This document shows, in pieces, positions 1 through 51,211 of a DNA stretch of 64,000 bases (within the stretch, counting starts at the first letter, position 1; every line of letters begins with the position of its first letter). The stretch is from the NCBI GenBank assembly GCA_963752475.1, contig CAVVYR010000006.1, positions 640,001-704,000 of the forward strand, given 5' to 3'. The translations under genes were made by a program, and so were the position numbers. Origin of the DNA: an uncultured Chloroflexia bacterium. GTDB lineage: Bacteria; Chloroflexota; Limnocylindria; Limnocylindrales; CSP1-4. Below the pieces are notes generated by a model that saw only the letters and a list, made by a program, of their open reading frames with translations, did no database searches and was not told where the DNA came from.

Positions 1-452
1 ACGAAGAGCAGGCTCGGGACCCCTCCGATCGCGGCCAACGTGCCGCCATCCGCGCCTCCGCTAGCCGACCGGACGCAGACGCCAAGCAGGAAGCCTGGGA
101 GCGGATCAACGGTGAGGGCTACGGGTCGGACTACCTCACGCGTGCCGCCATCGCCGGCTTCCAATGGCCACATCAGCGCGAGCTGACGGCGGCTTTCCGG
201 GATGACTTCTACGAGCGCGTGGCCCAGGTCTACGAGACCCGCGACCACGCCTACGCGGAGTCCTACCTCCGCTGGCTCGTGCCCGATCTGTGGGCTGAGT
301 CGGACGAGGTCGAGCGCATCCGCGGTTTCGTGGACGGTCTCGCTGCCGAGCGGGAACTACTACGGCGGCACTTCATCGAGGTCGCCGACGACATCGAGCG
401 CGATATCCGCGTGCGACGGTTCGCCGCCGCGGCATCGGTGCTGCCCGGCTAG
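1..452 (+). CDS. pepN: Aminopeptidase N, C-terminal end (partial, runs off window)
   Basis: Frame from nt 3 reads EEQARDPSDRGQRAAIRASASRPDADAKQEAWERI...IAGFQWPHQRELT...LLRRHFIEVADDIERDIRVR, typical of the ERAP1-like C-terminal domain of actinobacterial-type PepN. Confidence 0.75.
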   Translation, partial: EEQARDPSDRGQRAAIRASASRPDADAKQEAWERINGEGYGSDYLTRAAIAGFQWPHQRELTAAFRDDFYERVAQVYETRDHAYAESYLRWLVPDLWAESDEVERIRGFVDGLAAERELLRRHFIEVADDIERDIRVRRFAAAASVLPG

Positions 453-1720
453 CGCGAGGCGCGTCGGCCGCTACCTCGTCGTGCCGGCTGCCGGCGCCGG
501 CCTCCACTACCGCCGCGTGAGCTGCCGCGCACCGGCCGGCTGCTGGGGTCGACCTCGAAGCCACGGACCTGCTTCACCGGCAGGTCCTTCTTCAGGAGTC
601 GGTTGATGCCCTTGAGCTGCTCCTCTTCGTCGAACGAGACAAGCGAGAGGGCGAGGCCCTCCTTACCCGCACGCCCGGTACGACCGATGCGGTGGACATA
701 GTCCTCGGGGTCGTAGGGGATCTCGAAGTTGACGACCACGGGCAGGTCCTCGATGTCAAGCCCGCGGGCGGCCACGTCGGTGGCCACGAGCACGCGGACT
801 TCGCCGCTCTTGAACATCTGCAGCGCGCGCTCACGCTCGGGCTGCGTGCGGTCGCCGTGGATGGCGGTCGCTTCCACGCCGCCGCGATCGAGCTGGGAGG
901 CGAGGCGACGGGTCATCTGTTTGGTGCGCGTGAAGACCAGCACCTGGTGCAGGTCGCGGGTGCGGATCAGGTGGGACAGCAGCTCTCGCTTGCGGTCCGC
1001 GTCGACCAGGTACGCGATCTGCTCGACCGACTCGGCAGCCTTGATGGTCGGCTCGATGTCGACCATCTCGGGATCGTTGAGGAAGGTGCTCGCGAGCGAA
1101 CGGACCTCGCCATCGAGTGTGGCCGAGAAGAGCAGGTTCTGGCGCTTCGCCGGGAGCATGGCCACGATGCGTCGGATGTCGTCGATGAAGCCCATGTCGA
1201 GCATGCGGTCGGCCTCATCGAGCACCAGCACCTCCACCTGGCCCAGGTTGAGCGTGCGGCTGCCGGCGTGGTCGAGCAGGCGGCCGGGCGTGGCCACCAC
1301 GATCTCGACGCCAGCGAGGAGATCCTTCTCCTGGGGGCCCATGGGTACGCCGCCGTAGACGATGGTGGAGCGTAGACCGACGTGTTTGCCGTAGTCCCTG
1401 AAGCTGTTGTGGACCTGGATGGCCAGCTCGCGCGTGGGTGTGACCACGAGGACGCGGATGGGATGCCGCGCGGGCGAGAAGGACTTGTTGGCCTGGCCCT
1501 TGAGTCGCTCAAGGATGGGCAGGGCGAAGGCTGCGGTCTTGCCCGTGCCGGTCTGGGCTCGCGCCATCAGATCGACGCCCTTGAGCACGATGGGGATGGC
1601 CTGTTCCTGGATCGGGGTGGGGTCGGTGTACCCCTCTTCCGCGACAGCGCGGAGGGTCTCCGGGCCGAGGCCCAGATCGTCGAATGGCATGCGGGTCCTT
1701 TGGGTAGTCGTGTTGCCCAC
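449..1720 (-). CDS. DEAD-box RNA helicase (RhlE-like)
   Basis: Q motif PTPIQ, AQTGTGKT, PTRELA, TPGRL, DEAD, SAT, ARGLD, HRIGRTGR; basic C-terminal tail. Confidence 0.97.
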   Translation of the reverse strand: MGNTTTQRTRMPFDDLGLGPETLRAVAEEGYTDPTPIQEQAIPIVLKGVDLMARAQTGTGKTAAFALPILERLKGQANKSFSPARHPIRVLVVTPTRELAIQVHNSFRDYGKHVGLRSTIVYGGVPMGPQEKDLLAGVEIVVATPGRLLDHAGSRTLNLGQVEVLVLDEADRMLDMGFIDDIRRIVAMLPAKRQNLLFSATLDGEVRSLASTFLNDPEMVDIEPTIKAAESVEQIAYLVDADRKRELLSHLIRTRDLHQVLVFTRTKQMTRRLASQLDRGGVEATAIHGDRTQPERERALQMFKSGEVRVLVATDVAARGLDIEDLPVVVNFEIPYDPEDYVHRIGRTGRAGKEGLALSLVSFDEEEQLKGINRLLKKDLPVKQVRGFEVDPSSRPVRGSSRGGSGGRRRQPARRGSGRRASR

Positions 1721-1866
1721 CTATCGGCCAGGTCCAGGGCTGTCACGTTCGTTTGTGCGCGTGTCGCGCGAGGCATCGACCCGGAGATGCCGCCACTTGG
1801 TTCAACGAGAGCGCGTAGTCGCGATCGGCCCAGTGTAGTCGCTGCTCAGCAGGCCGGCCTGTCGCG

Positions 1867-2217
1867 CTACGGTCTGGGATCGAGCCGGAAGGCCGGACCG
1901 GCACCAAGGCGCTCGGCCGGGGTGCCGTACTTGAGGATCAACTCACGGACGGTGGCAGCTCGTTGGGTGACATCGAGTTCACTCGCGGTGTAGCGCCTCC
2001 GCGTGCTTTCGAGCTCGACGATGCATGCCGGCTTCGCCCGCAGGTTCAGGGCCCATCCGGTCGTCGCGGATGACGCGGCCACGAGCAACGAGCCGGTGCC
2101 ATCGACCACGAAGCCGATGGTCACGACCCGCGGCAACCCGCTCCGACGCCCGGTCGTCTGGAGCCGGATGACCTTGTTCCACGCAATGAGGTCGGCCTCC
2201 ATCGAGCGCTGGTTCAC
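1867..2217 (-). CDS. Deazaflavin (F420)-dependent nitroreductase family protein
   Basis: TTGRRSGLPR, W.LNLRA.P, and C-terminal FRL motifs. Confidence 0.85.
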   Translation of the reverse strand: MNQRSMEADLIAWNKVIRLQTTGRRSGLPRVVTIGFVVDGTGSLLVAASSATTGWALNLRAKPACIVELESTRRRYTASELDVTQRAATVRELILKYGTPAERLGAGPAFRLDPRP

Positions 2218-2708
2218 GCCATATGGTCCGGGTCGAGTGCGCTCGTGAGGCGTTGGCGTAGCACGTCGCGGTCGAGCCGAGCCCGTTGCTGTCGCGCCGT
2301 GGGGGCGATGCCCTCGAGCCGGGTGACCGCATCGTCATGAGCGTCAGCGAGCGCGTCGAGCTCACGCTGCAGGCGCTGGCTGGCTGCGGCAGGGGAACGC
2401 GAGGCACGCACGAGCAAACCCTCGATGGCCTCGAGGCGCTGGCGGACCTCCTTGTCCGTCTCGACCCACGGTGGCGCCGCCCCGGCATTGCGCAGGACGC
2501 GGTTGGCTGCGGCCATGTCACCGGCGTAGGTCTCGTCGTCGGGTCGCAGTGGCCGCCCGTGGTCGGGCAGGTCGTCGAACGCGCCTTCCTCCTGGGCCTC
2601 GCGGATGAGCCGCTCGGTCAACGTCTCCCAGCGAGGAGCCGTGCGTTCCTTACCCGTGGCATCGCGTCGGATGAGCGGCCGATCGCCTGGTCGTTGCTGC
2701 TGGCTCAC
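2214..2708 (-). CDS. DUF1992 (DnaJ-associated) domain protein
   Basis: ERLIREAQEEGAFDDLPDHGRPL...NRVLRNAGAAPPWVE signature. Confidence 0.85.
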   Translation of the reverse strand: MSQQQRPGDRPLIRRDATGKERTAPRWETLTERLIREAQEEGAFDDLPDHGRPLRPDDETYAGDMAAANRVLRNAGAAPPWVETDKEVRQRLEAIEGLLVRASRSPAAASQRLQRELDALADAHDDAVTRLEGIAPTARQQRARLDRDVLRQRLTSALDPDHMA

Positions 2709-2737
2709 GTGCTCATGCTCGCACGGAGCCGCGAGGG

Positions 2738-2962
2738 CTAGTGCGGGCGGGGGGCCGGCTGCGCTTCGCGCGTGAGGCGCAGCTTGCGATGCAGCCCGCA
2801 GACCGGGCAGGTCGCGTTCCTGCCGTCGTCATCAGGGACGAGGAAGGTGGTGCAGCCGTTGGTGCTGCAGAACAGCCGATGGCTGGCCGCTCGGCGAAGC
2901 CGGCGCTGAGCGTGGCTCCGCCGGCTGATGGCAGCGTTGGTGGGTGGGCTTCGGTGAAGCAT
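2738..2962 (-). CDS. Small hypothetical protein with a 4-Cys zinc ribbon
   Basis: CSTNGC...CPVC; GAAAGGA RBS upstream of ATG 2962. Confidence 0.6.
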   Translation of the reverse strand: MLHRSPPTNAAISRRSHAQRRLRRAASHRLFCSTNGCTTFLVPDDDGRNATCPVCGLHRKLRLTREAQPAPRPH

Positions 2963-3200
2963 CAGGTTCATCCTTTCGCCGGCGGCGCGACCATCGAAGG
3001 GTGCGCTCAAGCCGACCGTGGTGTCGGTGTACCGCTCGACGCATCCCGTTCGGGGAGCGGTGGTTCATCAGAGGCTCGCGTCTCGCGGGAGCACACCGGA
3101 GGTTCCGGTGCTCGACCGCGCGCGGGTCGGGGATGCCCATGCATTGTAGCGCATCCGTTCGAATAGCCTCTCCGCCGATGGTAGGGGGTACCCTGCAGCC

Positions 3201-3785
3201 ATGACAGCCACGCCCCCCGACGCGCTTCCCTACACCGGCGACCCCGAGGCCGACGCCCTGCTTGCCGTCGATCCCATGGCCCTGCTCATCGGCTTCGTGC
3301 TCGACCAACAGGTCACCGTGCAGAAGGCCTTCAGCGGCCCACTCGAACTGCGCCGCCGGGTGGGCACGCTCGACGCGGCCGAACTCGCGGCCATGGACCC
3401 CGGTGACTTCGAGGCCGCCTTCCGCGAGCGCCCCGCGCTCCATCGCTTCCCCGGCAACATGGCCAAGCGAACGCAAGCCTTGTGCACCGCGGTGGCCGAA
3501 CGCTATGGCGATGATCCTGCCGCGCTCTGGCACGACGCGGCCGACGGCCCCGACCTCGAGCAGCGGCTGCTGGCGCTTCCGGGCATCGGCGAGATGAAGG
3601 CCAAGGCCATGCTGGCGATCCTGCACAAGCGTTTCGGACTGGAGCTCGACGGGCTCGAGTCGGTCCTGCCGACGTACCCGACGTTGGGCGACGTGGACTC
3701 GGCCGAAGCGCTCGCCGAGTACCAGGAGAAGAAGCGCGCCTACAAGGCCAAGCTCAAGGCCGAGGGCGGCAGCTTCCAGCCGTAG
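3201..3785 (+). CDS. HhH-GPD family base-excision repair protein
   Basis: LLIGFVLDQQVTVQKAFSGP, HRFPGNMAKR, LALPGIGEMKA (HhH). Confidence 0.9.
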   Translation: MTATPPDALPYTGDPEADALLAVDPMALLIGFVLDQQVTVQKAFSGPLELRRRVGTLDAAELAAMDPGDFEAAFRERPALHRFPGNMAKRTQALCTAVAERYGDDPAALWHDAADGPDLEQRLLALPGIGEMKAKAMLAILHKRFGLELDGLESVLPTYPTLGDVDSAEALAEYQEKKRAYKAKLKAEGGSFQP

Positions 3786-3937
3786 CGCTCCGGCTGGCAA
3801 CCCCTAGCCTCACGCTGCATCTTTCTTCGAACGGTCACGCCCCTGGAGATCAGCGCGCGTGAGACCAAGTCTCACGAATCGGGCTTCACATCTGACCGCC
3901 ACAGGCGTAGATTCGTACCAGGAGGTACTCGGTTCGA

Positions 3938-4099
3938 ATGGTCGATCTCCGCAACCGGCAGGTCCGGAAGACTCGGAGCCCCAGGGCCACTGAGTGGTCG
4001 TGGGCGCTGCTGCAGACCGCGGATGGATCGCACGGCATGAGCAACCTCGTCACCCAGCCCCGAGCGGGCAACATCTCATCTGACACCCGAGCCGGCTGA
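3938..4099 (+). CDS. Candidate small protein (53 aa), not in ORF track
   Basis: AGGAGGT RBS at 3920-3926, ATG 3938, open to TGA 4097-4099: MVDLRNRQVRKTRSPRATEWSWALLQTADGSHGMSNLVTQPRAGNISSDTRAG. Confidence 0.4.
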   Translation: MVDLRNRQVRKTRSPRATEWSWALLQTADGSHGMSNLVTQPRAGNISSDTRAG

Positions 4100-4201
4100 T
4101 TCGCGCGGTCGGGGTCGTGAGCGCATGCGCGCCGGCCGCCGAACGCGTGCACCCAGACCGCGTCGGACCCGCGCCCAGTGCGTGGGTCTCGTGATTCGCG
4201 A

Positions 4202-5065
4202 TCAGGCTCCGGCAGCCTTCCGCAGCCCGTCCTGCAACGCCCGGGCGACCTCTCCTGGGCGGCCCGTCCCCACGGCCACATCGTCGAGCCGGACGATCGG
4301 CATCAGCTCACGCACGGAGGACGAGCTGAAGACCTCCTCGGCCGCGGCCAAGTCGCCAAGTGGGTACCAGCCCTCCAGGACCTCGTAGCCCTGCTCCCGC
4401 GCGATGTCGATGAGGTAGGCGCGCGTGACGCCGGCAAGGATGCCCAGGTCGAGCGCGGGAGTGTAGAGGCTTCGGTCGGTGCGCCACCAGACGTTGGTCA
4501 CCGGGCCTTCGAGCACGGAGCCGTCAGCGGCGATGAAGACGGCATCTTCGGCCCCGCGTCTCCGTGCCTCGTCGAAGGCGGCCATGTTCACCGCATAGGA
4601 GGTCGACTTCACGCCGTCGAGCAGCCATGGCGCATCCTTGCGCAGGCGCGGGTCGGTGCCCAACTGGAGCGAGACGGCGGCGATGCCTCTCGCGCGCTTG
4701 TCTTCAAGATCGCCGGGGATGGGCAGGACCACCGCCATCGACACGGGCTCGCCGCCCGCTCGACCGCCGGTCATGGTGAGGCGCAACGAGCAATCGGGCG
4801 CAGCGGCGGCCTCGAGCACCGTCCGGGCCAGGTCGGCCAACCCGTCGGCATCGGGCGCGGGTAGCTGCATCCGCGCAGCGGACGCGCGCAGCCGCTCGAG
4901 ATGCTCCTCCATGGCGAATGGGCGACCGCCGTAGACGCGCAGTGTCTCGAATGCCGCCAAACCTCGGAGCAGTCCGGCATCATCAGCGTGGATGACGGGG
5001 ACGTCGGGGTCGACGACACCACGTCCCAGGACGCCGACCGCGAGCGGGTGAGCGTCGGGTTTCAC
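4202..5065 (-). CDS. pabC: Class IV aminotransferase / 4-amino-4-deoxychorismate lyase
   Basis: FETLR, HLERL, KSTSY (PLP Lys), EGPVTN, ILAGVTR; GTG overlaps the pabB stop. Confidence 0.8.
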   Translation of the reverse strand: MKPDAHPLAVGVLGRGVVDPDVPVIHADDAGLLRGLAAFETLRVYGGRPFAMEEHLERLRASAARMQLPAPDADGLADLARTVLEAAAAPDCSLRLTMTGGRAGGEPVSMAVVLPIPGDLEDKRARGIAAVSLQLGTDPRLRKDAPWLLDGVKSTSYAVNMAAFDEARRRGAEDAVFIAADGSVLEGPVTNVWWRTDRSLYTPALDLGILAGVTRAYLIDIAREQGYEVLEGWYPLGDLAAAEEVFSSSSVRELMPIVRLDDVAVGTGRPGEVARALQDGLRKAAGA

Positions 5066-6141
5066 GCCGCCACCTTCGGATGCGAGGCCGCACCGATGGC
5101 GTCGAGCAGCGGACGCGCCTTGACCCACGATTCCTCGACCTCGGCCTCGGGCTCCGAGTCCCATACGACGCCGCCACCGACCCACAGGTGGATGCGGTCG
5201 CCGACGATCGCGAAGGTGCGGATGGTCAGCGCCAGCTCGAAGTCGCCGTTGGGCCAGACGGTCCCGAGGGCGCCCATCGAGGCTCCGCGGCCGACCGGCT
5301 CGAGGGCGTTGATGTGATCGAGCGCAGCGATCTTGGGTGCGCCGGTGACCGAGCCGCCCGGGAACATCGCGCGCATGGCCTCGGCGAACCCGATGCCGTC
5401 TCGAGCGGTGCCCTCGACGAGCGAGACGAGGTGTTCCACACCAGCCATCGGTCGCGCGCGCATGAGCTCCGGCCAGACCACGCTGCCAGGTTCGCAGATG
5501 CGTCCCAGGTCGTTGCGTTCGAGGTCTACGATCATCACGTGCTCGGCTGCGTCCTTGGCCGAGTCCTGCAGCGCTGCCGCGCCACCGGCCGGCCTCGTGC
5601 CCTTGATGGGCATCGTCCAGAGCCGACGTCCGTGGCGCGCGAGGAAGAGCTCGGGTGTGGCCGACACGATGCTCCAGCCGTCACCACTCAGCGGCTGCGG
5701 ATGAAGAGGAGCGAAGGGACCGAGTGCCGCGGCCAGGCCAGCGGGATCGCCGTCGAAGGCCGCCGAGAGATGCTGGACCAGGTTGACCTGGTAGACCTCA
5801 CCTTGGGCGATGGCCTCGCGTGCGAACCCCACGGCGTGCGCGTAATCGGCGGTCGTCCAGGTCGAGTCCCAGGCGCCGATGCTGAAGGCACCTACAGCCG
5901 CCGCTCGCTCAGCGACCCGGCGCAGGCGACAGGCCGCCAGGGGCAGATCGGCCGGCTCGGGGCGTGCCGCCCGCTCGCTCCGGCGCAGGGGTTCGGACAG
6001 GCCGTAGCCGAGGTAGACATCGGCGCACACGTCCTGCGGCGGCCGGTCAGCGAAGAAGCCGGCTCCTCGCAGATGCTCCTCGATGGCCTCGAACGCACCC
6101 GTGGTCGCTCGGACCTCGAAGGTCGGCTGGTCGGCTACCAC
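5062..6141 (-). CDS. pabB: Aminodeoxychorismate/anthranilate synthase component I
   Basis: GEVYQVNL, PELFL, PIKGT, AEHVMIVDLERNDL, PGGSVTGAPK, IRT, GGGVV..S..E.EE...KA. Confidence 0.85.
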   Translation of the reverse strand: MVADQPTFEVRATTGAFEAIEEHLRGAGFFADRPPQDVCADVYLGYGLSEPLRRSERAARPEPADLPLAACRLRRVAERAAAVGAFSIGAWDSTWTTADYAHAVGFAREAIAQGEVYQVNLVQHLSAAFDGDPAGLAAALGPFAPLHPQPLSGDGWSIVSATPELFLARHGRRLWTMPIKGTRPAGGAAALQDSAKDAAEHVMIVDLERNDLGRICEPGSVVWPELMRARPMAGVEHLVSLVEGTARDGIGFAEAMRAMFPGGSVTGAPKIAALDHINALEPVGRGASMGALGTVWPNGDFELALTIRTFAIVGDRIHLWVGGGVVWDSEPEAEVEESWVKARPLLDAIGAASHPKVAA

Positions 6142-45238: not shown

Positions 45239-47570
45239 GTGCAGCAACGACCGAGGCCGCGATCGATGCCTGGTCCGGTGGCGCCCGTCGTGGTGCGCGC
45301 ACAAGGTGCGGTGCCGCCGCTGGCAACCGCGCCGGAGCGAGGGCGCTTCCGTCCCGATATCGAGGGCTTGCGTGGCATCGCGGTGCTGCTCGTCGTCCTC
45401 TTCCACGCCTGGCCGGAGTTGCTCGGCGGCGGCTTCATCGGCGTCGATGTCTTCTTCGTCATCAGCGGCTTCCTCATCACCGGGCTGCTCTACCGCGAGC
45501 TCGCGGCACATGGTCGCATCAGCTTCCGTGACTTCTACGTCCGGCGCATCCGCCGCCTCTTCCCGGCCGCGTCGCTCGCGCTGCTGGTCACGTTCCTGCT
45601 CTCCGCCTGGTTGCTCTCGCCACTGGCGCTGCCGCGCGTGACCGGCGATGGTGTGGCTGCCGCGCTGTCGGTCGCGAACATCCGCTTCGCGCTCGCGAGC
45701 GGGGACTACTTCACGGCCGTGGCCACGCCCTCGCCGTTCCTGCACTACTGGTCGCTGAGCGTGGAGGAGCAGTTCTACCTCGTGTGGCCCGCGACCCTGC
45801 TGCTGGTGGCGCGCTTCGGAGGGCTGCGCCTGCTGGCCCCGGCCATCCTGGCCATCACGGTCCTGTCGCTGGTGCTGGCGGTGGTGGGTACCGAGGTCGC
45901 TGCCGGCTGGGCCTTCTACTCGTTGCCCACGCGCGCATGGCAGCTGGCCGTCGGCGGACTGTTGGCCATCGTGGCCCTCGACCGGTTCCGCGAGCGGGGG
46001 CGTGTCGGGACTGCTCGCGCTCGCCGGCTGGGTCGGCCTCGGTGGCGTGCTGCTCGCGGGCTACGTCTTCGACGACCTGCTGGCCTACCCGGGGTGGTGG
46101 GCCCTGCTGCCGACGCTGGGTGCCCTGCTCGTCGTGGCCGGTGGTGATCGTCGCCTCGGGCCCGGCCTGCTGCTGCGACTGGCGCCAGTGCGCTTCACCG
46201 GCCGCATCAGCTACGCCCTCTACCTCTGGCACTGGCCGCTGTTGGTGTTGCCGGCCTCGGCCTGGGGCGAAGAGCTGCCGGCGGTCGCTCGTCTGGCGCT
46301 GGTGGCACTGGCGTTCGTCGTGGCCGCTGCCAGCACGCTGCTCATGGAGGAGCCCATCCGGCGCGGTACGTTCGGCTTCCGCGGCCGGTCGCTACGTGCG
46401 GCCGCTCCACCCCTCGCGGCCATGGCCCTGGCGGTCGTCATCGGGGTCGGAGCCACGAGCTGGGTGACGGAGCGGACGCTGGCCGAGGTTCGTGGCGGTG
46501 ACGTGGCCGCGGCCGAACCGCCGGTGGACGTCGAGGGCGACGCGCTCATCGAAGGACTCATCGACGAGGAGCCGAGCGCTCAGGAGTCGAGGACCGCACC
46601 TGGGCCGACGCCCACACCGACTCCTGTGCCGACCCGCAAGCCGAAGGCGGCCGAGAGGTCGGCGGCCGAGCCTGTGGTCGACCCTGCCGCGAAGCCGACG
46701 AAGAAGCCGAAGCGAACACCGAAGCCGGCACCGAAGCCGAAGAAGACACCCAGGCCCGGACCTGACTGGAGCCTGCCCAAGGACGTCCAGCCCAGTCTCA
46801 TCGCGGCGCCGGACGACTTCGAGTTCCTCAAGAAGAACGCCTGCCTGCAAGGGGAGTCCGCGACGTGGCCGAAGTCCTGTGCCTTCGGCAAGACCTCTTC
46901 GCGGCACACGATCGCGCTGGTCGGCGACTCCCACGCCTCGCACTGGTTCCCGGCGCTTCGCCGTGTGGCCGACGACAACGGTTGGCGCCTGGAGACCTAC
47001 GTGAAGGTCTCCTGTCCCTTCACCGATATCCTCGTGCGCAACCTCGAGAAGAAGAAGAAGTACAAGGAGTGCCTGAAGTTCAACGAGGCCGTGGTGCAGA
47101 AGCTCAAGGCCAGCAAGCCCGATGTCGTGGTCACCGCCCTCAGTCGATGGCAGCACCCGGTGGGTGACGACTACGACAGCCCCTACGCTCAGGGTGAGGG
47201 CGTCGCGCGCATGCTCGAGCAGGTGCCGGGCAAGCCCGTGGTCATCGCCGATGTGCCCTATCCGGGACAGGACGTGCCCGAGTGCCTGGCCAAGAACCTC
47301 AAGGACATCCGGCCCTGTGCTGCCCCGGCGCGCAACCGCAACGCCGGAGGTTCACCGACACGCGAGCGCCAGGCGGCCAACGCGTCGGGCGGTGTGATGC
47401 TGAACTTCTACGACCTCATCTGTAAGCAGAACGACCGCTGCCTGCCGGTGCGCGACGGCGTCATCATCTGGCGCGACCACCACCATCTGACCGCGACCTT
47501 CGCCCGTTCGCTGGCCCCGGCGCTCGATCGCGCGCTGCAGAGGGTCGTGCCTAAACGGATGCGCAAGTAG
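45239..47570 (+). pseudogene. OatA-like acyltransferase-3 + SGNH fusion, one frameshift in a G run near 45996-46001
   Basis: FRPDIEGLRGIAV, GVDVFFVISGF, HYWSLSVEEQFY; second frame GRISYALYLWHWP, GDSHA, DHHH. Confidence 0.85.
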
Positions 47571-47579
47571 CGCGTCCAC

Positions 47580-48155
47580 TCACTCCAGCTCGTTCGCTTG
47601 GGCCACGCGGGCCAGCCAGAACAGCCCCACAAGCGTCTTGGCATCCTCGATCTGGCCACGATCGGCCATCGCGACCGCCTCGCGCCAGGGCACGCGCACG
47701 AGGTCCAGGTACTCGTCGACATCAGGGCCGCGGTAGTCGGCCAGTGGCTCCAGGTCGGTCGCGAGGTAGAGGTGCATCTCCTCTTCGGTGAAGCCGGGCG
47801 CAGTCCAGAAGCGGCCGAGCTTGCGCCATGTCGCTGCCCGGTGGCCGGTCTCCTCCTCGAGCTCGCGCGGGGCCGCACCGTCGGGATCCTCGATGGTGCC
47901 GTCGTCCAGACGGTCGAGCGTGCCCGCCGGCAGCTCCAGGATGACCTGCTCCACCGGCGTGCGCCACTGCCGCACCATGAGCACGTCATCGCCCGTGACG
48001 GGAACGACGCAGACGGCGCCAGGGTGTTCCACGATCTCGCGTGGGTGGCGCGCCCCACCGGCATCTTCGATGGTGTCGACCCGGAAGGTCATGAAACGGC
48101 CGCGATGGACGACGCGCCGTTCCACGGTCGTCTCGCGCAGGTGTTCGTCGGTCAT
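47580..48155 (-). CDS. nudF: NUDIX hydrolase (ADP-ribose pyrophosphatase-like)
   Basis: HPGAV, RQWR, ELPAG...RELEEETG, PGF, DAKT. Confidence 0.88.
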   Translation of the reverse strand: MTDEHLRETTVERRVVHRGRFMTFRVDTIEDAGGARHPREIVEHPGAVCVVPVTGDDVLMVRQWRTPVEQVILELPAGTLDRLDDGTIEDPDGAAPRELEEETGHRAATWRKLGRFWTAPGFTEEEMHLYLATDLEPLADYRGPDVDEYLDLVRVPWREAVAMADRGQIEDAKTLVGLFWLARVAQANELE

Positions 48156-48402
48156 CTCGGGAGCATACGGGCTGCGCGTGGCACCACGCGGGCCGCCGTG
48201 ACGGTGGTGCAGGGGGGTGCTCGATGCGGTGAAGGGCAGTGCCGGTCGGTGCGTGCGTGCACACCCCGTCCTAGTACCACTTCGCCATGGAGGGTACGAG
48301 CGTTCTTCGAGACGATGCGTCGCGTCAGGGAACGGCCCTCGACCGAGACCCGAGCACTCGCAGCACCCAGGGCACTGGCCCGATCTCATAGGAGACTCAG
48401 GG

Positions 48403-48486
48403 ATGAGCCGATACAAGGATCTGGCGCTCCGCCTCGCGGTAGTCGCTGCGTTCGTGCTCACGCTGGCGGCACCGCTCCGCTGGTAA
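48403..48486 (+). CDS. Small hydrophobic peptide (27 aa) MSRYKDLALRLAVVAAFVLTLAAPLRW
   Basis: AGGAGA RBS 7 nt upstream, signal-peptide-like n/h regions, TAA stop, followed by a hairpin and the DUF5317-like gene. Confidence 0.75.
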   Translation: MSRYKDLALRLAVVAAFVLTLAAPLRW

Positions 48487-48506
48487 GCACGTAGATACCC
48501 ACCACC

Positions 48507-48546
48507 GGGGCCGACGAACCTCAACCTCGCGCAACTCGTCGGCCCC
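48507..48546 (+). terminator. Hairpin between peptide gene and DUF5317-like gene
   Basis: GGGGCCGACGA-N18-TCGTCGGCCCC (11-bp perfect stem, no U tract). Confidence 0.55.
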
Positions 48547-48632
48547 ATTCGCATCTCCGATCGCGAGACCTGATGACCGTGCCGCCGGCGCCACGTGCGC
48601 CGGCGTCGCCATAGCGGAGGCCGGAAACCGAC

Positions 48633-49223
48633 GTGCTGTTGCTCTACTCCATCGCTGCCGGCCTCTTCGTCGGTCGGTTGCTGGGTGGCCGCGTACGCAA
48701 CATCGAGCACGTCCGCTTCGTCTGGTGGCAGCTGGCCCTGGCCGGTCTGGCCGTGCAGCTGATCCTCTTCGCTGATCCGATCCAGGAGCGCATCGGATCC
48801 GCCGGCGCGGCCATCTACGTCGTCTCGACGCTGGCTGTGCTGGTGGCGCTGCTGCGCAACCTGCGCTTGCCGGGACTGGTGGTCATCGCCGTCGGCGCGA
48901 CACTCAACCTCGTACCCATCCTGACCAACGGCGGCTACATGCCCTCCTCGCCCGAGGTCTGGCGAGAGCTGACGGGCGTGGCCGCCGTGCCGGTGGCCTA
49001 CTACAGCAACGTCACCCTCATCGGGCCCGACACCTGGTTCCCGTTCCTGGGCGACATCTTCGTCTTCCCACGACCCTTGCCGATGGCCACAGCCTTCTCG
49101 CTCGGCGATGCCGTCATCGCCCTCGGCGCTGTCATCTTCCTCGTGAGTGCGATGCGCTCGCCGGCGTCGTCGGAACCCACACGGCCCATAGCTGACCCAC
49201 TGCTGGTGGCTCGCCGATGGTGA
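48633..49223 (+). CDS. DUF5317-like membrane protein
   Basis: GRLLGGR, N...PG......G..LN.....NGGYMP, FLGDIF, FSLGD; multiple TMs; GGAGG RBS. Confidence 0.8.
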   Translation: MLLLYSIAAGLFVGRLLGGRVRNIEHVRFVWWQLALAGLAVQLILFADPIQERIGSAGAAIYVVSTLAVLVALLRNLRLPGLVVIAVGATLNLVPILTNGGYMPSSPEVWRELTGVAAVPVAYYSNVTLIGPDTWFPFLGDIFVFPRPLPMATAFSLGDAVIALGAVIFLVSAMRSPASSEPTRPIADPLLVARRW

Positions 49224-51211
49224 TGCTGGCCCAGGACGCGACCGACGCCCTGACACGCCTCGCCCGGGACATCGACGCCGACCACGGCGTACATCTGTAT
49301 CTGGACCGCGGTGACGGTGTGCTCGAGCTGATCGCGTCAGTGCGTGAGGGCGAGGCACTGACGGCGGTAGACGTCGCAGCACAGAACGACCCTGCACCCG
49401 AACGTCGGGACGCCGGACCCCTGCGGCGATGGCTGCCCGGTGGCCGGAAGGACGATCCCGGACCTGGTGCGGTCACCAACCTGTCCCTGCCCGATGAGCG
49501 CGCCAGCCTCCTGACCCTCGAGCGCAAGCGCCGTGAGCCTTTCAACGACGAGGACCTGGCCATCGCTCGCGTTCGCGCCCGCCAGCTGGTGAGCAATGTC
49601 GCCACCCGTCTGGGCCCCCGGCCCATCGCTTGGTCCGCGCAGCTGGAGGCCGTCCAGTCCGTCGCGGCCCAGCTCACACGCCTGACGAGCGTGGAGGAGG
49701 TGAGCGCCGCGCTCTGCTCCCAGACGCAGCGCGTGGTGGCCTTCGACAACGCCCGCGTCTACGTCCTGCGCAAGGACGGTCGGACGCTCGATCCAGTGGC
49801 CTTCCGGCCGCACGCTCGCGAGTACCACGGCGAGTCGGCCGCCGGGTTGCGTGTGACCGTGGGGGAGGGCATCACCGGCTGGGTCGCCTCGACCGGTCAG
49901 CAACTCATCGTCGACGACGCCGCAGCTGACCCTCGCGCGGTGCAGGTGCCGGGGTCGCCCGACCTGAGCGAGGAGTCGATGCTGCTGGCGCCACTGCGCT
50001 CCGAGAGCCGCGTGATCGGCGTGGTCGTGCTCTCGCGTCTGGGCCTGGCCCGCTTCTCCGACGATGAGTTGCGCCTGCTGGGCGTCCTCGCCGACCAAGC
50101 GGCCGTGGCCATCGAGAACGCTCGTCTGCTGACCGAGCGGGACCGTCACGTGGCTGAGCTCAAGGCCCTGCTCGAGATCGCCGACGCCGGGGGGGCGGCT
50201 TCGGACGAGCGCGATCTGGCCAACGTGCTCGCGGCCAAGCTCCGCACCGCCTCGGGCATGGATGCCTGTCTCATCTCACGTTGGGACGCGGAGACCGGCC
50301 GACTCTCGCCCATCGGCGCCGACGGCCGTCCGCTCATCGGCCCGCAACGCGACCCCAACGTCCACCGTACCTTGCGCCAGGTGCTCATGAACGATCAGCC
50401 GGTGTGGCTCGATCCAGGCGTGGAGTCGCTCGAGCCGGCCGAGCTCTCGCGCCTGCATCAGCTGGGCGGTGCGGCCACCATGCTGTTGCCGCTTTCGACC
50501 CGTGGCCGTGTGGCCGGTGTCCTCGAACTCATCGCCGAGAGCTCCGGGCGTCGCTTCAGCGACGGTGAGACGACGCTGTTGCGGGCGATGGCCAACCAGG
50601 CGGCCTCCGCACTCGAGAACGCACGCCTGATGCGCCAGCTTCGCGATGCGGCCGAGACCGACCTCGTGACCGGCATCTACAGCCATCGACACCTGCAGGA
50701 TCGCATTCGTCAGGAGGTCGCACGGGCAGCCCGCGGCCATGTACCCCTGAGCGTGCTGATGGTGGACCTCGACGACTTCAAGCGCATCAACGACCAGCAC
50801 GGCCACCAGGCCGGCGACCGCGTGCTGCGTGCCATCGGGGGCGCCTTGCGCGCGGCCGTACGCACCAGCGACGTGGTCGCGCGCTACGGCGGTGATGAGT
50901 TCGTCGTGCTCATGCCCGACACCGACGAGGATGAGGCCAGCACGGTGGCCCAGCGAGCCGAAGCAGCCGTGGCCGAGCTGCAACATCCTATGGCCGAGGG
51001 CACCACCGTGCAGGTCACCTGCAGCGTGGGCCTGGCGCTCCATCCACGAGATGGAAGATCGGGCAAGGAGCTGCTGCGAGCAGCCGACGCACAGATGTAC
51101 CGGCACAAGCGCTCGCGCGCACCCGGGCGACGGCGTGATGGCTCGGGTGAGCCGGCCTCAGTCGAGATACACGCGGCCGTGCCGTTGCCGGTGCCGCAGA
51201 CCTCGTCGTAG
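49217..51211 (+). CDS. GAF-domain diguanylate cyclase
   Basis: Two clear GAF domains (GEGITGWVA; QAAVAIENARL; QAASALENARL), DLDDFKRIND.HGH..GD, RTSD I-site, RYGGDEF. Confidence 0.94.
   Translation: MVMLAQDATDALTRLARDIDADHGVHLYLDRGDGVLELIASVREGEALTAVDVAAQNDPAPERRDAGPLRRWLPGGRKDDPGPGAVTNLSLPDERASLLTLERKRREPFNDEDLAIARVRARQLVSNVATRLGPRPIAWSAQLEAVQSVAAQLTRLTSVEEVSAALCSQTQRVVAFDNARVYVLRKDGRTLDPVAFRPHAREYHGESAAGLRVTVGEGITGWVASTGQQLIVDDAAADPRAVQVPGSPDLSEESMLLAPLRSESRVIGVVVLSRLGLARFSDDELRLLGVLADQAAVAIENARLLTERDRHVAELKALLEIADAGGAASDERDLANVLAAKLRTASGMDACLISRWDAETGRLSPIGADGRPLIGPQRDPNVHRTLRQVLMNDQPVWLDPGVESLEPAELSRLHQLGGAATMLLPLSTRGRVAGVLELIAESSGRRFSDGETTLLRAMANQAASALENARLMRQLRDAAETDLVTGIYSHRHLQDRIRQEVARAARGHVPLSVLMVDLDDFKRINDQHGHQAGDRVLRAIGGALRAAVRTSDVVARYGGDEFVVLMPDTDEDEASTVAQRAEAAVAELQHPMAEGTTVQVTCSVGLALHPRDGRSGKELLRAADAQMYRHKRSRAPGRRRDGSGEPASVEIHAAVPLPVPQTSS

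Follow-up and report, generated by a model that had tools for sequence, protein, structure and literature searches.

A conserved micropeptide family associated with DUF5317 membrane proteins and cyclic di-GMP enzymes in Chloroflexota

A 64,000-nucleotide stretch of DNA from an uncultured member of the Chloroflexota (positions 640,001 to 704,000 of contig CAVVYR010000006.1, GenBank assembly GCA_963752475.1; hereafter the window) carries a compact cassette composed of a micropeptide gene, a gene for a membrane protein of the DUF5317 family and a gene for a diguanylate cyclase. The micropeptide gene is real, conserved and linked to DUF5317, and its product belongs to a peptide family that is co-inherited with DUF5317 across the phylum. 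The window holds one variant of a widespread and unpublished membrane signalling module. The explanation that we favour, with a confidence somewhat short of even, is that the peptide docks on DUF5317, and that DUF5317 serves as the membrane input of an otherwise soluble cyclase, which would adjust the synthesis of cyclic di-GMP (c-di-GMP). The source of the window is a high-G+C organism, and the nearest loci come from Limnocylindrales-type metagenome genomes. An earlier note on this DNA, made by reading its letters, had proposed a peptide-signalling cassette at this place, in which DUF5317 cleaves the micropeptide as a peptidase; this proposal is weighed below together with other alternatives.

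All elements of the cassette lie on the + strand in the order given here, with a divergent NUDIX gene upstream of the leader. Ribosome-binding sites are abbreviated RBS.

48242..48402 (approx.), + strand: conserved non-coding 5' leader, recognised by an nhmmer profile of 12 relatives
48390..48394, + strand: RBS AGGAG of the peptide gene, read from the sequence; GGAG in 13 of 13 aligned sequences
48403..48486, + strand: gene for a 27-residue, putative single-pass membrane peptide, supported by 12 of 12 close loci and by codon variation
48507..48546, + strand: predicted RNA hairpin 1, 11 bp, with an 18-nt loop containing a conserved CTCGCGC
48583..48605, + strand: hairpin 2 or palindrome, 9 bp, with a near-invariant stem and a variable loop, just 5' of the DUF5317 RBS
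48616..48620, + strand: RBS GGAGG of the DUF5317 gene, conserved; GTG start at 48633
48633..49223, + strand: DUF5317 membrane protein, 196 aa, PF17248 match
49217..51211, + strand: GAF-GAF-GGDEF cyclase, 664 aa, PF00990 match; its ATG overlaps the DUF5317 stop (49221-49223)

Evidence that the micropeptide gene is coding

The peptide open reading frame (ORF) begins with an ATG at 48403, 8 nt downstream of its AGGAG, and ends after 27 codons at a stop codon (48484-48486). It is coding, since a 27-codon ORF is kept at the same place in 12 of 12 close loci, the variable sites fall at codon positions 1, 2 and 3 in the numbers 10/3/16, and the ratio of nonsynonymous to synonymous variation (pN/pS) is 0.25. 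In 12 of the 21 variable codons all changes are synonymous, and 18 of the 27 residues are invariant in peptides of the window type, which all end in a conserved R-W-stop. The mean column identity of the peptide reaches 91%, compared with identities to the window proteins of 73-86% for DUF5317 and of 74-84% for the cyclase, the latter range holding for 10 of the 12 loci (in one locus, L011, the cyclase aligned only in pieces, most of them at 57-62%). Conservation of this kind, extending along the whole peptide, would fit a function of the entire molecule better than that of a disposable leader.

No Pfam or NCBIfam model matches these peptides, and public gene calls, where present, label them as hypothetical proteins. 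The window peptide contains no Cys. When the 4.2 Mb of its own genome were scanned for ORFs combining a membrane-like helix, a Trp within the last 6 residues and a Lys or Arg near the N-terminus, 18 were retrieved, and only the window peptide was preceded by an RBS. The features that the earlier note had read in the 27-residue ORF, namely its own RBS, a basic N-terminal end, a hydrophobic core and an LAA segment followed by a terminal PLRW, can all be seen in the sequence. The start that it had given to the cassette, position 48290, has to be moved, as it falls in the conserved non-coding leader and not in the peptide gene. That position coincides with the ATG of a 34-codon ORF (48287-48391), which was considered as a peptide gene and rejected: its middle part varies with insertions and deletions among relatives.

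A peptide family co-inherited with DUF5317

To place the window in a broader context, 82 distinct Chloroflexota DUF5317 genes were collected with flanks of 1.5 to 3 kb, many of these flanks being short. A rule-based scan, in which a candidate had to have a start codon, a Lys or Arg and a hydrophobic window of 15 residues and to reach a stop within 22 residues, returned same-strand candidates up to 500 nt upstream of DUF5317 in 43 of the 82 loci, two of which are evidently the ends of MFS genes, and candidates up to 600 nt downstream in 6 of the 82. The reverse-complement control of the same scan gave 0/82 upstream and 2/82 downstream. Thirty-three of the peptides, including that of the window, align without gaps through their core and share a common pattern made of a basic residue, a helix of fixed length, small residues, an Ala, one of P, G or D, two residues and a Trp. 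The Ala is present in 31 of the 33 peptides, P, G or D follows in 32, and the Trp stands four positions after the Ala in 22; across the family, the position that follows this Ala is occupied by P, G, D or T. The ending of the window peptide represents the shortest form of this A-[P/G/D]-x-x-W motif.

All frames of the 82 loci were then searched with a profile of the 33 peptides; matches to these training peptides and their near-copies follow by construction. Frames reaching at least 20 bits numbered 55 on the DUF5317 strand and a single one on the other strand. At 15 bits or more, a match was found in 58 of the 82 loci, with 55 on the same strand and three only on the opposite strand. This count is a lower bound, because a longer flank allowed a candidate peptide to be recovered at the second DUF5317 locus of the window's own genome. 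Matches outside the training set occurred in 12 loci; some are located 1.5 to 2.7 kb upstream, before a MASE9-kinase, MASE9-HD-GYP or GGDEF-EAL gene that itself precedes DUF5317, and others about 1 kb downstream of DUF5317. The earlier note had suggested a search for a conserved micropeptide at other DUF5317 loci as a check of its proposal, and such a peptide clearly exists. A separate split of the loci into those with and without a peptide, based on stricter rules, was abandoned since it missed peptides with a charged helix, downstream peptides and those lying beyond an enzyme gene.

To examine co-inheritance, the 82 DUF5317 proteins were placed on a quickly built maximum-likelihood tree and labelled by the presence of a peptide directly upstream in the rule-based scan. 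The label is strongly clustered, requiring 6 changes on this tree as compared with 27.8 after shuffling, and none of the 500 shuffles was as low, with the reservation that relatedness inflates tests of this type. One clade of 17 members (SH-aLRT 98), all of them with a peptide, spans ten taxonomic families. The association extends to a second phylum, the Actinomycetota, in which peptides scoring 15 bits or more were found at 4 of the 28 loci, each of them in divergent orientation. A near-range, same-strand scan of that phylum (1/28 upstream and 1/28 downstream, probably spurious) was set aside for its limited range.

One further arrangement deserves mention. In locus L088 (G285:C7:298000-309340), two DUF5317 genes are separated by a GAF-GGDEF-EAL gene, and the second of them is followed by two tandem micropeptide genes, all on one strand.

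The DUF5317 protein and its predicted topology

The second gene of the cassette had been described as DUF5317-like, and this assignment is confirmed by a match to PF17248 (E 9.2e-26; 91.1 bits vs a cut-off of 25) that spans positions 2-150 of the 151-position profile. The family is large, with 2505 representative clusters (50% identity) at E<=0.001, and a control search also matched it in Thermus thermophilus. It was detected in 92 of the 301 sampled Chloroflexota genomes and in 121 of the 301 sampled genomes of the second phylum; unpublished genomes, one in the former set and nine in the latter, were used only in these tallies. A full-text literature search returned no paper naming DUF5317 or PF17248, the supplements of bioRxiv preprints being outside that search.

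Ten positions are invariant among 73 diverse members (N76, G88, N92, M103, P104, L139, D141, S156, G158 and D159). These include the pair of conserved Asp residues, D141 and D159, that the earlier note had pointed out. The AlphaFold2 model, with a predicted local confidence (pLDDT) of 92.8, displays five helices, the last two of which are joined by a long loop. Lys and Arg are abundant in loops 1 and 3 and in the C-terminal tail, which are thus predicted to be inside, and loop 4 is acidic and predicted to be outside, which gives a protein with its N-terminus outside and its C-terminus inside. This outer loop carries D141, S156, G158 and D159, the last of which starts the final helix. The peptides have on average 2.15 Lys or Arg residues before their helix and 0.45 after it; because these residues are concentrated before the helix, the tail is expected outside. 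The peptide is therefore predicted to have its N-terminus inside and its tail on the same membrane face as the Asp-containing loop of DUF5317.

The cyclase and the genomic neighbourhood of DUF5317

The third gene encodes a protein with two GAF domains and a GGDEF domain (PF00990, E 6.8e-48; TIGR00254, E 5.4e-49). As the earlier note had observed, it overlaps the DUF5317 stop, its GGDEF (residues 558-562) and RxxD (549-552) motifs are intact, and there is no membrane domain that could act as an obvious transmembrane sensor. Residues 1-141 have no Pfam match. An ortholog of this cyclase is found directly downstream of DUF5317 in 12 of 12 close loci. A single in-frame fusion, P0123 (552 aa, 55% identical), joins DUF5317 to GAF and GGDEF domains in one polypeptide. 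A second apparent fusion, P0271 (849 aa), was discarded, as its DUF5317 frame is lost after about residue 128, probably by an assembly frameshift.

On either strand, the closest ORF with 110 residues or more was taken as a neighbour of DUF5317, a rule by which some neighbours are missed, and for the 69 genes outside the window type these ORFs were compared with Pfam. The frequent proximity of DUF5317 to GGDEF and HD-GYP genes, which the earlier note had mentioned, is borne out by these data: an HD-GYP, GGDEF or EAL neighbour was identified at 40 of the 82 loci, comprising all 13 window-type loci and 27 of the 69 other Chloroflexota genes. Among those 69, histidine kinases (7) and response regulators (4) also occur. 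Regulators with a BTAD domain, often combined with TPR or AAA parts, adjoin 22 of the 69 genes, and all 22 of these loci have a peptide candidate. Transport functions are represented by five of the 69 loci (L035, L039, L040, L044 and L046) that have a separate MFS gene upstream and a gene for an AI-2E-family transporter downstream, by an HD-GYP-MFS fusion in L086, and by fusions of DUF5317 itself to MFS, in both orders, in 7 of the 15 longer forms checked as well as in the second copy of the window's own genome.

This second module (L156, contig C8:347500-356500) consists of a regulator, a candidate peptide, an HD-GYP enzyme and the DUF5317-MFS fusion. The regulator (29-3259) is a STAND-type protein of 1076 aa with AAA_22/AAA_16, Trans_reg_C and BTAD domains. 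The candidate micropeptide (about 3500-3593), upstream of the HD-GYP gene, lacks a Trp and scores 9.9 bits, the best of 194 frames. The membrane HD-GYP enzyme (3693-5090) has a sub-threshold MASE9 match (17.4 bits vs a cut-off of 24.3). No Rfam match was found at this locus, and a c-di-GMP riboswitch was detected neither here nor in the window.

Other arrangements are confined to particular groups of loci. Six of the 69 genes (L087, L096, L097, L099, L101 and L107) form a DUF5317 clade that is always placed between genes for an M20 peptidase and an FtsH-like AAA/M41 protease, and in five of these six loci the opposite strand holds a family-like peptide frame (12-22 bits) at a distance of about 2.2 kb. 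In two regulator-linked loci, small proteins with a sub-cut-off match to 'Frankia_peptide' (PF14407) are encoded just downstream of DUF5317 (L077:3636-4133 and L112:2646-2975).

In the window, the cassette is surrounded by the NUDIX gene and by genes for an acyltransferase and a ROK regulator. The region 45239-47570, upstream of the NUDIX gene, encodes a protein composed of an acyltransferase-3 and an SGNH domain connected by a linker rich in Pro, Lys and Thr.

Leader, hairpins and RNA-library contigs

The leader contains invariant blocks of up to about 30 nt and is more conserved than the flanking genes. Searches with the nhmmer profile showed that it is single-copy in its own genome and confined to the 13 window-type loci, with no further copy in that genome or in other classes of locus. 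No structure can be claimed for it, because only 1 of the 31 predicted pairs covaries. At the gathering score, Rfam 15 has no match in the window, and at E<=10 the region 48100-48700 yielded only two chance-level microRNA rows. A scan for promoters and terminators returned no site, and no sigma-70-like promoter was seen before the peptide gene. The leader may serve as an operator or a promoter, or may represent a structured or new RNA element.

Hairpin 1 is formed by arms at 48507-48517 and 48536-48546. Compensatory changes at 4 of its 10 consensus pairs mark it as a conserved structure, as judged by comparison among relatives. In hairpin 2, which the earlier note had not listed, 13 of 13 sequences agree at 8 of the 9 pairs, and the remaining C-G pair is U-G in 1 of 13; because its stem is nearly invariant, it provides no covariation. 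Neither hairpin is followed by a T-run, and neither appears terminator-like by the scan. The 11-bp hairpin described in the earlier note is thus present and conserved, whereas nothing points to its further suggestion that this element raises the amount of peptide mRNA over that of the downstream genes.

Contigs assembled from four RNA-library runs, belonging to four studies, cover 48239-48790 in pieces. Among them, a 268-nt contig identical to the window at 48378-48644 includes the peptide ORF, both hairpins and the start of DUF5317. RNA libraries may contain DNA and such contigs give no expression level; likewise, the gap that they leave at 48806-49092 says nothing about transcription in that interval.

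A proposed membrane input and its alternatives

In the explanation that we favour, the translated 27-residue peptide would cross the membrane once, with its basic N-terminus inside and its A-P-x-R-W tail outside. The residues D141, S156-x-G158-D159, N99, G101, M103 and P104 of DUF5317 would be situated within the long outside loop or adjacent to it, on the face where the peptide tail is expected. We infer that the helix and the tail of the peptide dock on DUF5317 as a tethered ligand or regulatory subunit, for which cleavage of the peptide would be possible and not needed. The soluble GAF-GGDEF cyclase would be translationally coupled to DUF5317, being most likely held at the cytoplasmic C-terminus of that protein, and DUF5317 would pass the peptide-bound state to the cyclase, thereby setting c-di-GMP synthesis. 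In relatives, the same peptide-DUF5317 pair would serve membrane HD-GYP phosphodiesterases, GGDEF-EAL proteins and histidine kinases.

Several observations weigh against this explanation. Of the 82 loci, 24 have no peptide match within the flanks collected, and in several of these the 1.5-kb flank is filled by an enzyme gene. The indications of contact between DUF5317 and the cyclase are limited to the gene overlap and one fusion cluster, and fusion to MFS, as seen for DUF5317, is not usual for a pure sensor module. Tandem peptide genes, which occur in two loci (L043 and L095), are more usual for precursors than for fixed subunits. An invariant Asp pair whose register resembles that of LspA (see below) would suit catalysis at least as well as plain binding. 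Finally, structure prediction of the DUF5317-peptide complex, one of the checks that the earlier note had put forward, is only a weak pass. The interface score (ipSAE) was 0.36 (runs of 0.36, 0.36 and 0.33), while the best of three controls was 0.00; at least 81% of the contacts were common to the runs, and the pLDDT of the partner was 61-62. The prediction used author-built alignments. In the calibration, which held no protein shorter than 30 residues, 58 of 80 solved complexes passed the mark, as did 2 of 110 mismatched pairs, with scores of 0.60 or less accounting for 7 of the 80 solved complexes and for both passing mismatches. The prediction lends weak support to the proposed docking.

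The alternative that survives best, which we nevertheless regard as unlikely, retains the mechanism of the earlier note. DUF5317 would be a di-aspartyl peptidase resembling LspA (lipoprotein signal peptidase II, MEROPS A8, PF01252) that cuts the peptide near A-P, and the product, a diffusible signal ending in Trp, would feed back on c-di-GMP. DUF5317 and LspA are both small membrane proteins with two conserved aspartates near the outer face, one of which belongs, in both proteins, to a motif of small residue and Asp starting the last helix. The partner peptide of DUF5317 also has a design similar to that of a signal peptide, with small residues before the Pro; a Pro at position +1 blocks signal peptidase I. 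In one pre-stated hhalign comparison, alignment of the DUF5317 profile to one built from 24 Chloroflexota LspA proteins gave a probability of 11.7% (P 0.0026) over 62 columns and a score of 27.7, as compared with 18.9 and 19.9 for reversed-sequence controls. In this weak alignment, D141 falls on the first catalytic Asp motif of LspA and S-x-G-D159 on the second, the LspA motifs being VVDF-like and FNxAD-like; the local likeness is real but weak. The invariance and the predicted outward position of D141 and D159 agree with catalysis, as do the tandem peptide genes with a precursor. The peptide candidates present at all 22 BTAD-regulator loci recall cassettes of a receptor and its propeptide, and the MFS fusions could couple processing to export.

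Other results speak against such a peptidase. DUF5317 has no match to PF01252 at E<=10, a profile search of PDB sequences returned no LspA at E<=10 and only chance-level rows, and a Foldseek search of the PDB brought up no match at E<=0.001. A wide structural search retrieved only generic helical matches, without LspA, and the ESM Atlas had no usable match. The motif parallel drawn in the earlier note is weakly matched in the register of the two Asp motifs, and the fold comparison that it had recommended did not bring up LspA. DUF5317 differs from LspA by having five predicted helices instead of four and a 35-residue insert before the first Asp, and its partner peptide lacks the lipobox Cys. 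A canonical LspA is also encoded in the window's genome. Moreover, the whole peptide is conserved, including its cytoplasmic N-terminal part, and the window cyclase is cytoplasmic, with no importer or receptor for a released peptide nearby. Still a shade less probable is a broader version, in which DUF5317 proteins would be new di-aspartyl peptidases, convergent with LspA or very distant from it, producing short Trp peptides from A-[P/G]-x-x-W micropeptides and constituting, with STAND/BTAD regulators and c-di-GMP enzymes, a new peptide-signalling system of Chloroflexota and Actinomycetota.

The direction of the signal could also be reversed, DUF5317 and its peptide forming a transport or export device controlled by the adjacent c-di-GMP enzymes. 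The MFS fusions in both orders, the five loci with separate MFS and AI-2E-family transporter genes and the HD-GYP-MFS fusion would be in line with such an output. However, DUF5317 occupies the N-terminal place typical of a sensor in the DUF5317-GAF-GGDEF fusion, and the histidine kinases next to DUF5317 at 7 loci fit an input role better. No c-di-GMP binding motif turned up in DUF5317, although no search was aimed at one. On balance, we consider an output role improbable, and somewhat more so than either form of peptidase. The last alternative, that translation of the 27-codon ORF and the hairpins tune the expression of DUF5317 and the cyclase while the peptide itself has no function, might draw on the conserved leader, the two conserved hairpins flanking the ORF and the R-W-stop ending, yet it is very improbable: the scan revealed no terminator-like site, peptides from families whose DNA is unrelated retain the design of the membrane helix and the A-[P/G/D]-x-x-W tail, and a pure leader-ORF role is contradicted by the varied gene orders of other loci, where related peptides are encoded downstream, in tandem, on the opposite strand, or 2 kb upstream with an enzyme gene in between.

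Significance and comparison with known systems

To our knowledge, most c-di-GMP enzymes have no known input. A tiny peptide and a membrane partner, co-inherited with cyclases, HD-GYP phosphodiesterases and kinases in two phyla, represent a testable candidate for an input at the level of the membrane. The proposed docking provides a first functional hypothesis for DUF5317 and singles out the residues D141 and D159. A profile for the peptide family would also improve annotation.

The micropeptide cassettes bring to mind the Rgg/SHP, RRNPP and AgrB/AgrD systems, in which the gene for a short hydrophobic pro-peptide is located beside a regulator and a membrane protein. This likeness applies to the 22 Chloroflexota loci with a BTAD regulator as neighbour and to the second locus of the window's own genome. 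In contrast, the window locus has no TPR-type receptor-regulator, BTAD/TPR regulators being found only at other loci, where they are of the SARP/STAND type and not of the RRNPP type, and no homologue of Eep, PptAB, Opp or AgrB was identified.

A second point of comparison is offered by the MASE9 HD-GYP phosphodiesterases. MASE9 has been defined as a domain proposed to bind a ligand within the membrane (Galperin and Chou, preprint, 10.1101/2021.11.05.467447), and the available passages of that preprint mention neither DUF5317 nor a micropeptide. In many relatives of the window locus, DUF5317 follows a MASE9-HD-GYP or MASE9-kinase gene, whereas the cyclase of the window has no membrane domain of its own.

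A parallel to the proposed docking may be found in MgrB or SafA acting with PhoQ. In these systems, the gene for a membrane signalling protein has beside it one for a peptide of about 30 residues; the N-terminus of this peptide lies inside, and the peptide is presumed to make contact with that protein within the membrane. The module described here would differ from them in its partner, a five-helix uncharacterised protein instead of a kinase, and in its proposed output, c-di-GMP. It is further distinguished by the conserved motif of the peptide tail, predicted to lie outside, and by the co-inheritance of the peptide with its partner across two phyla.

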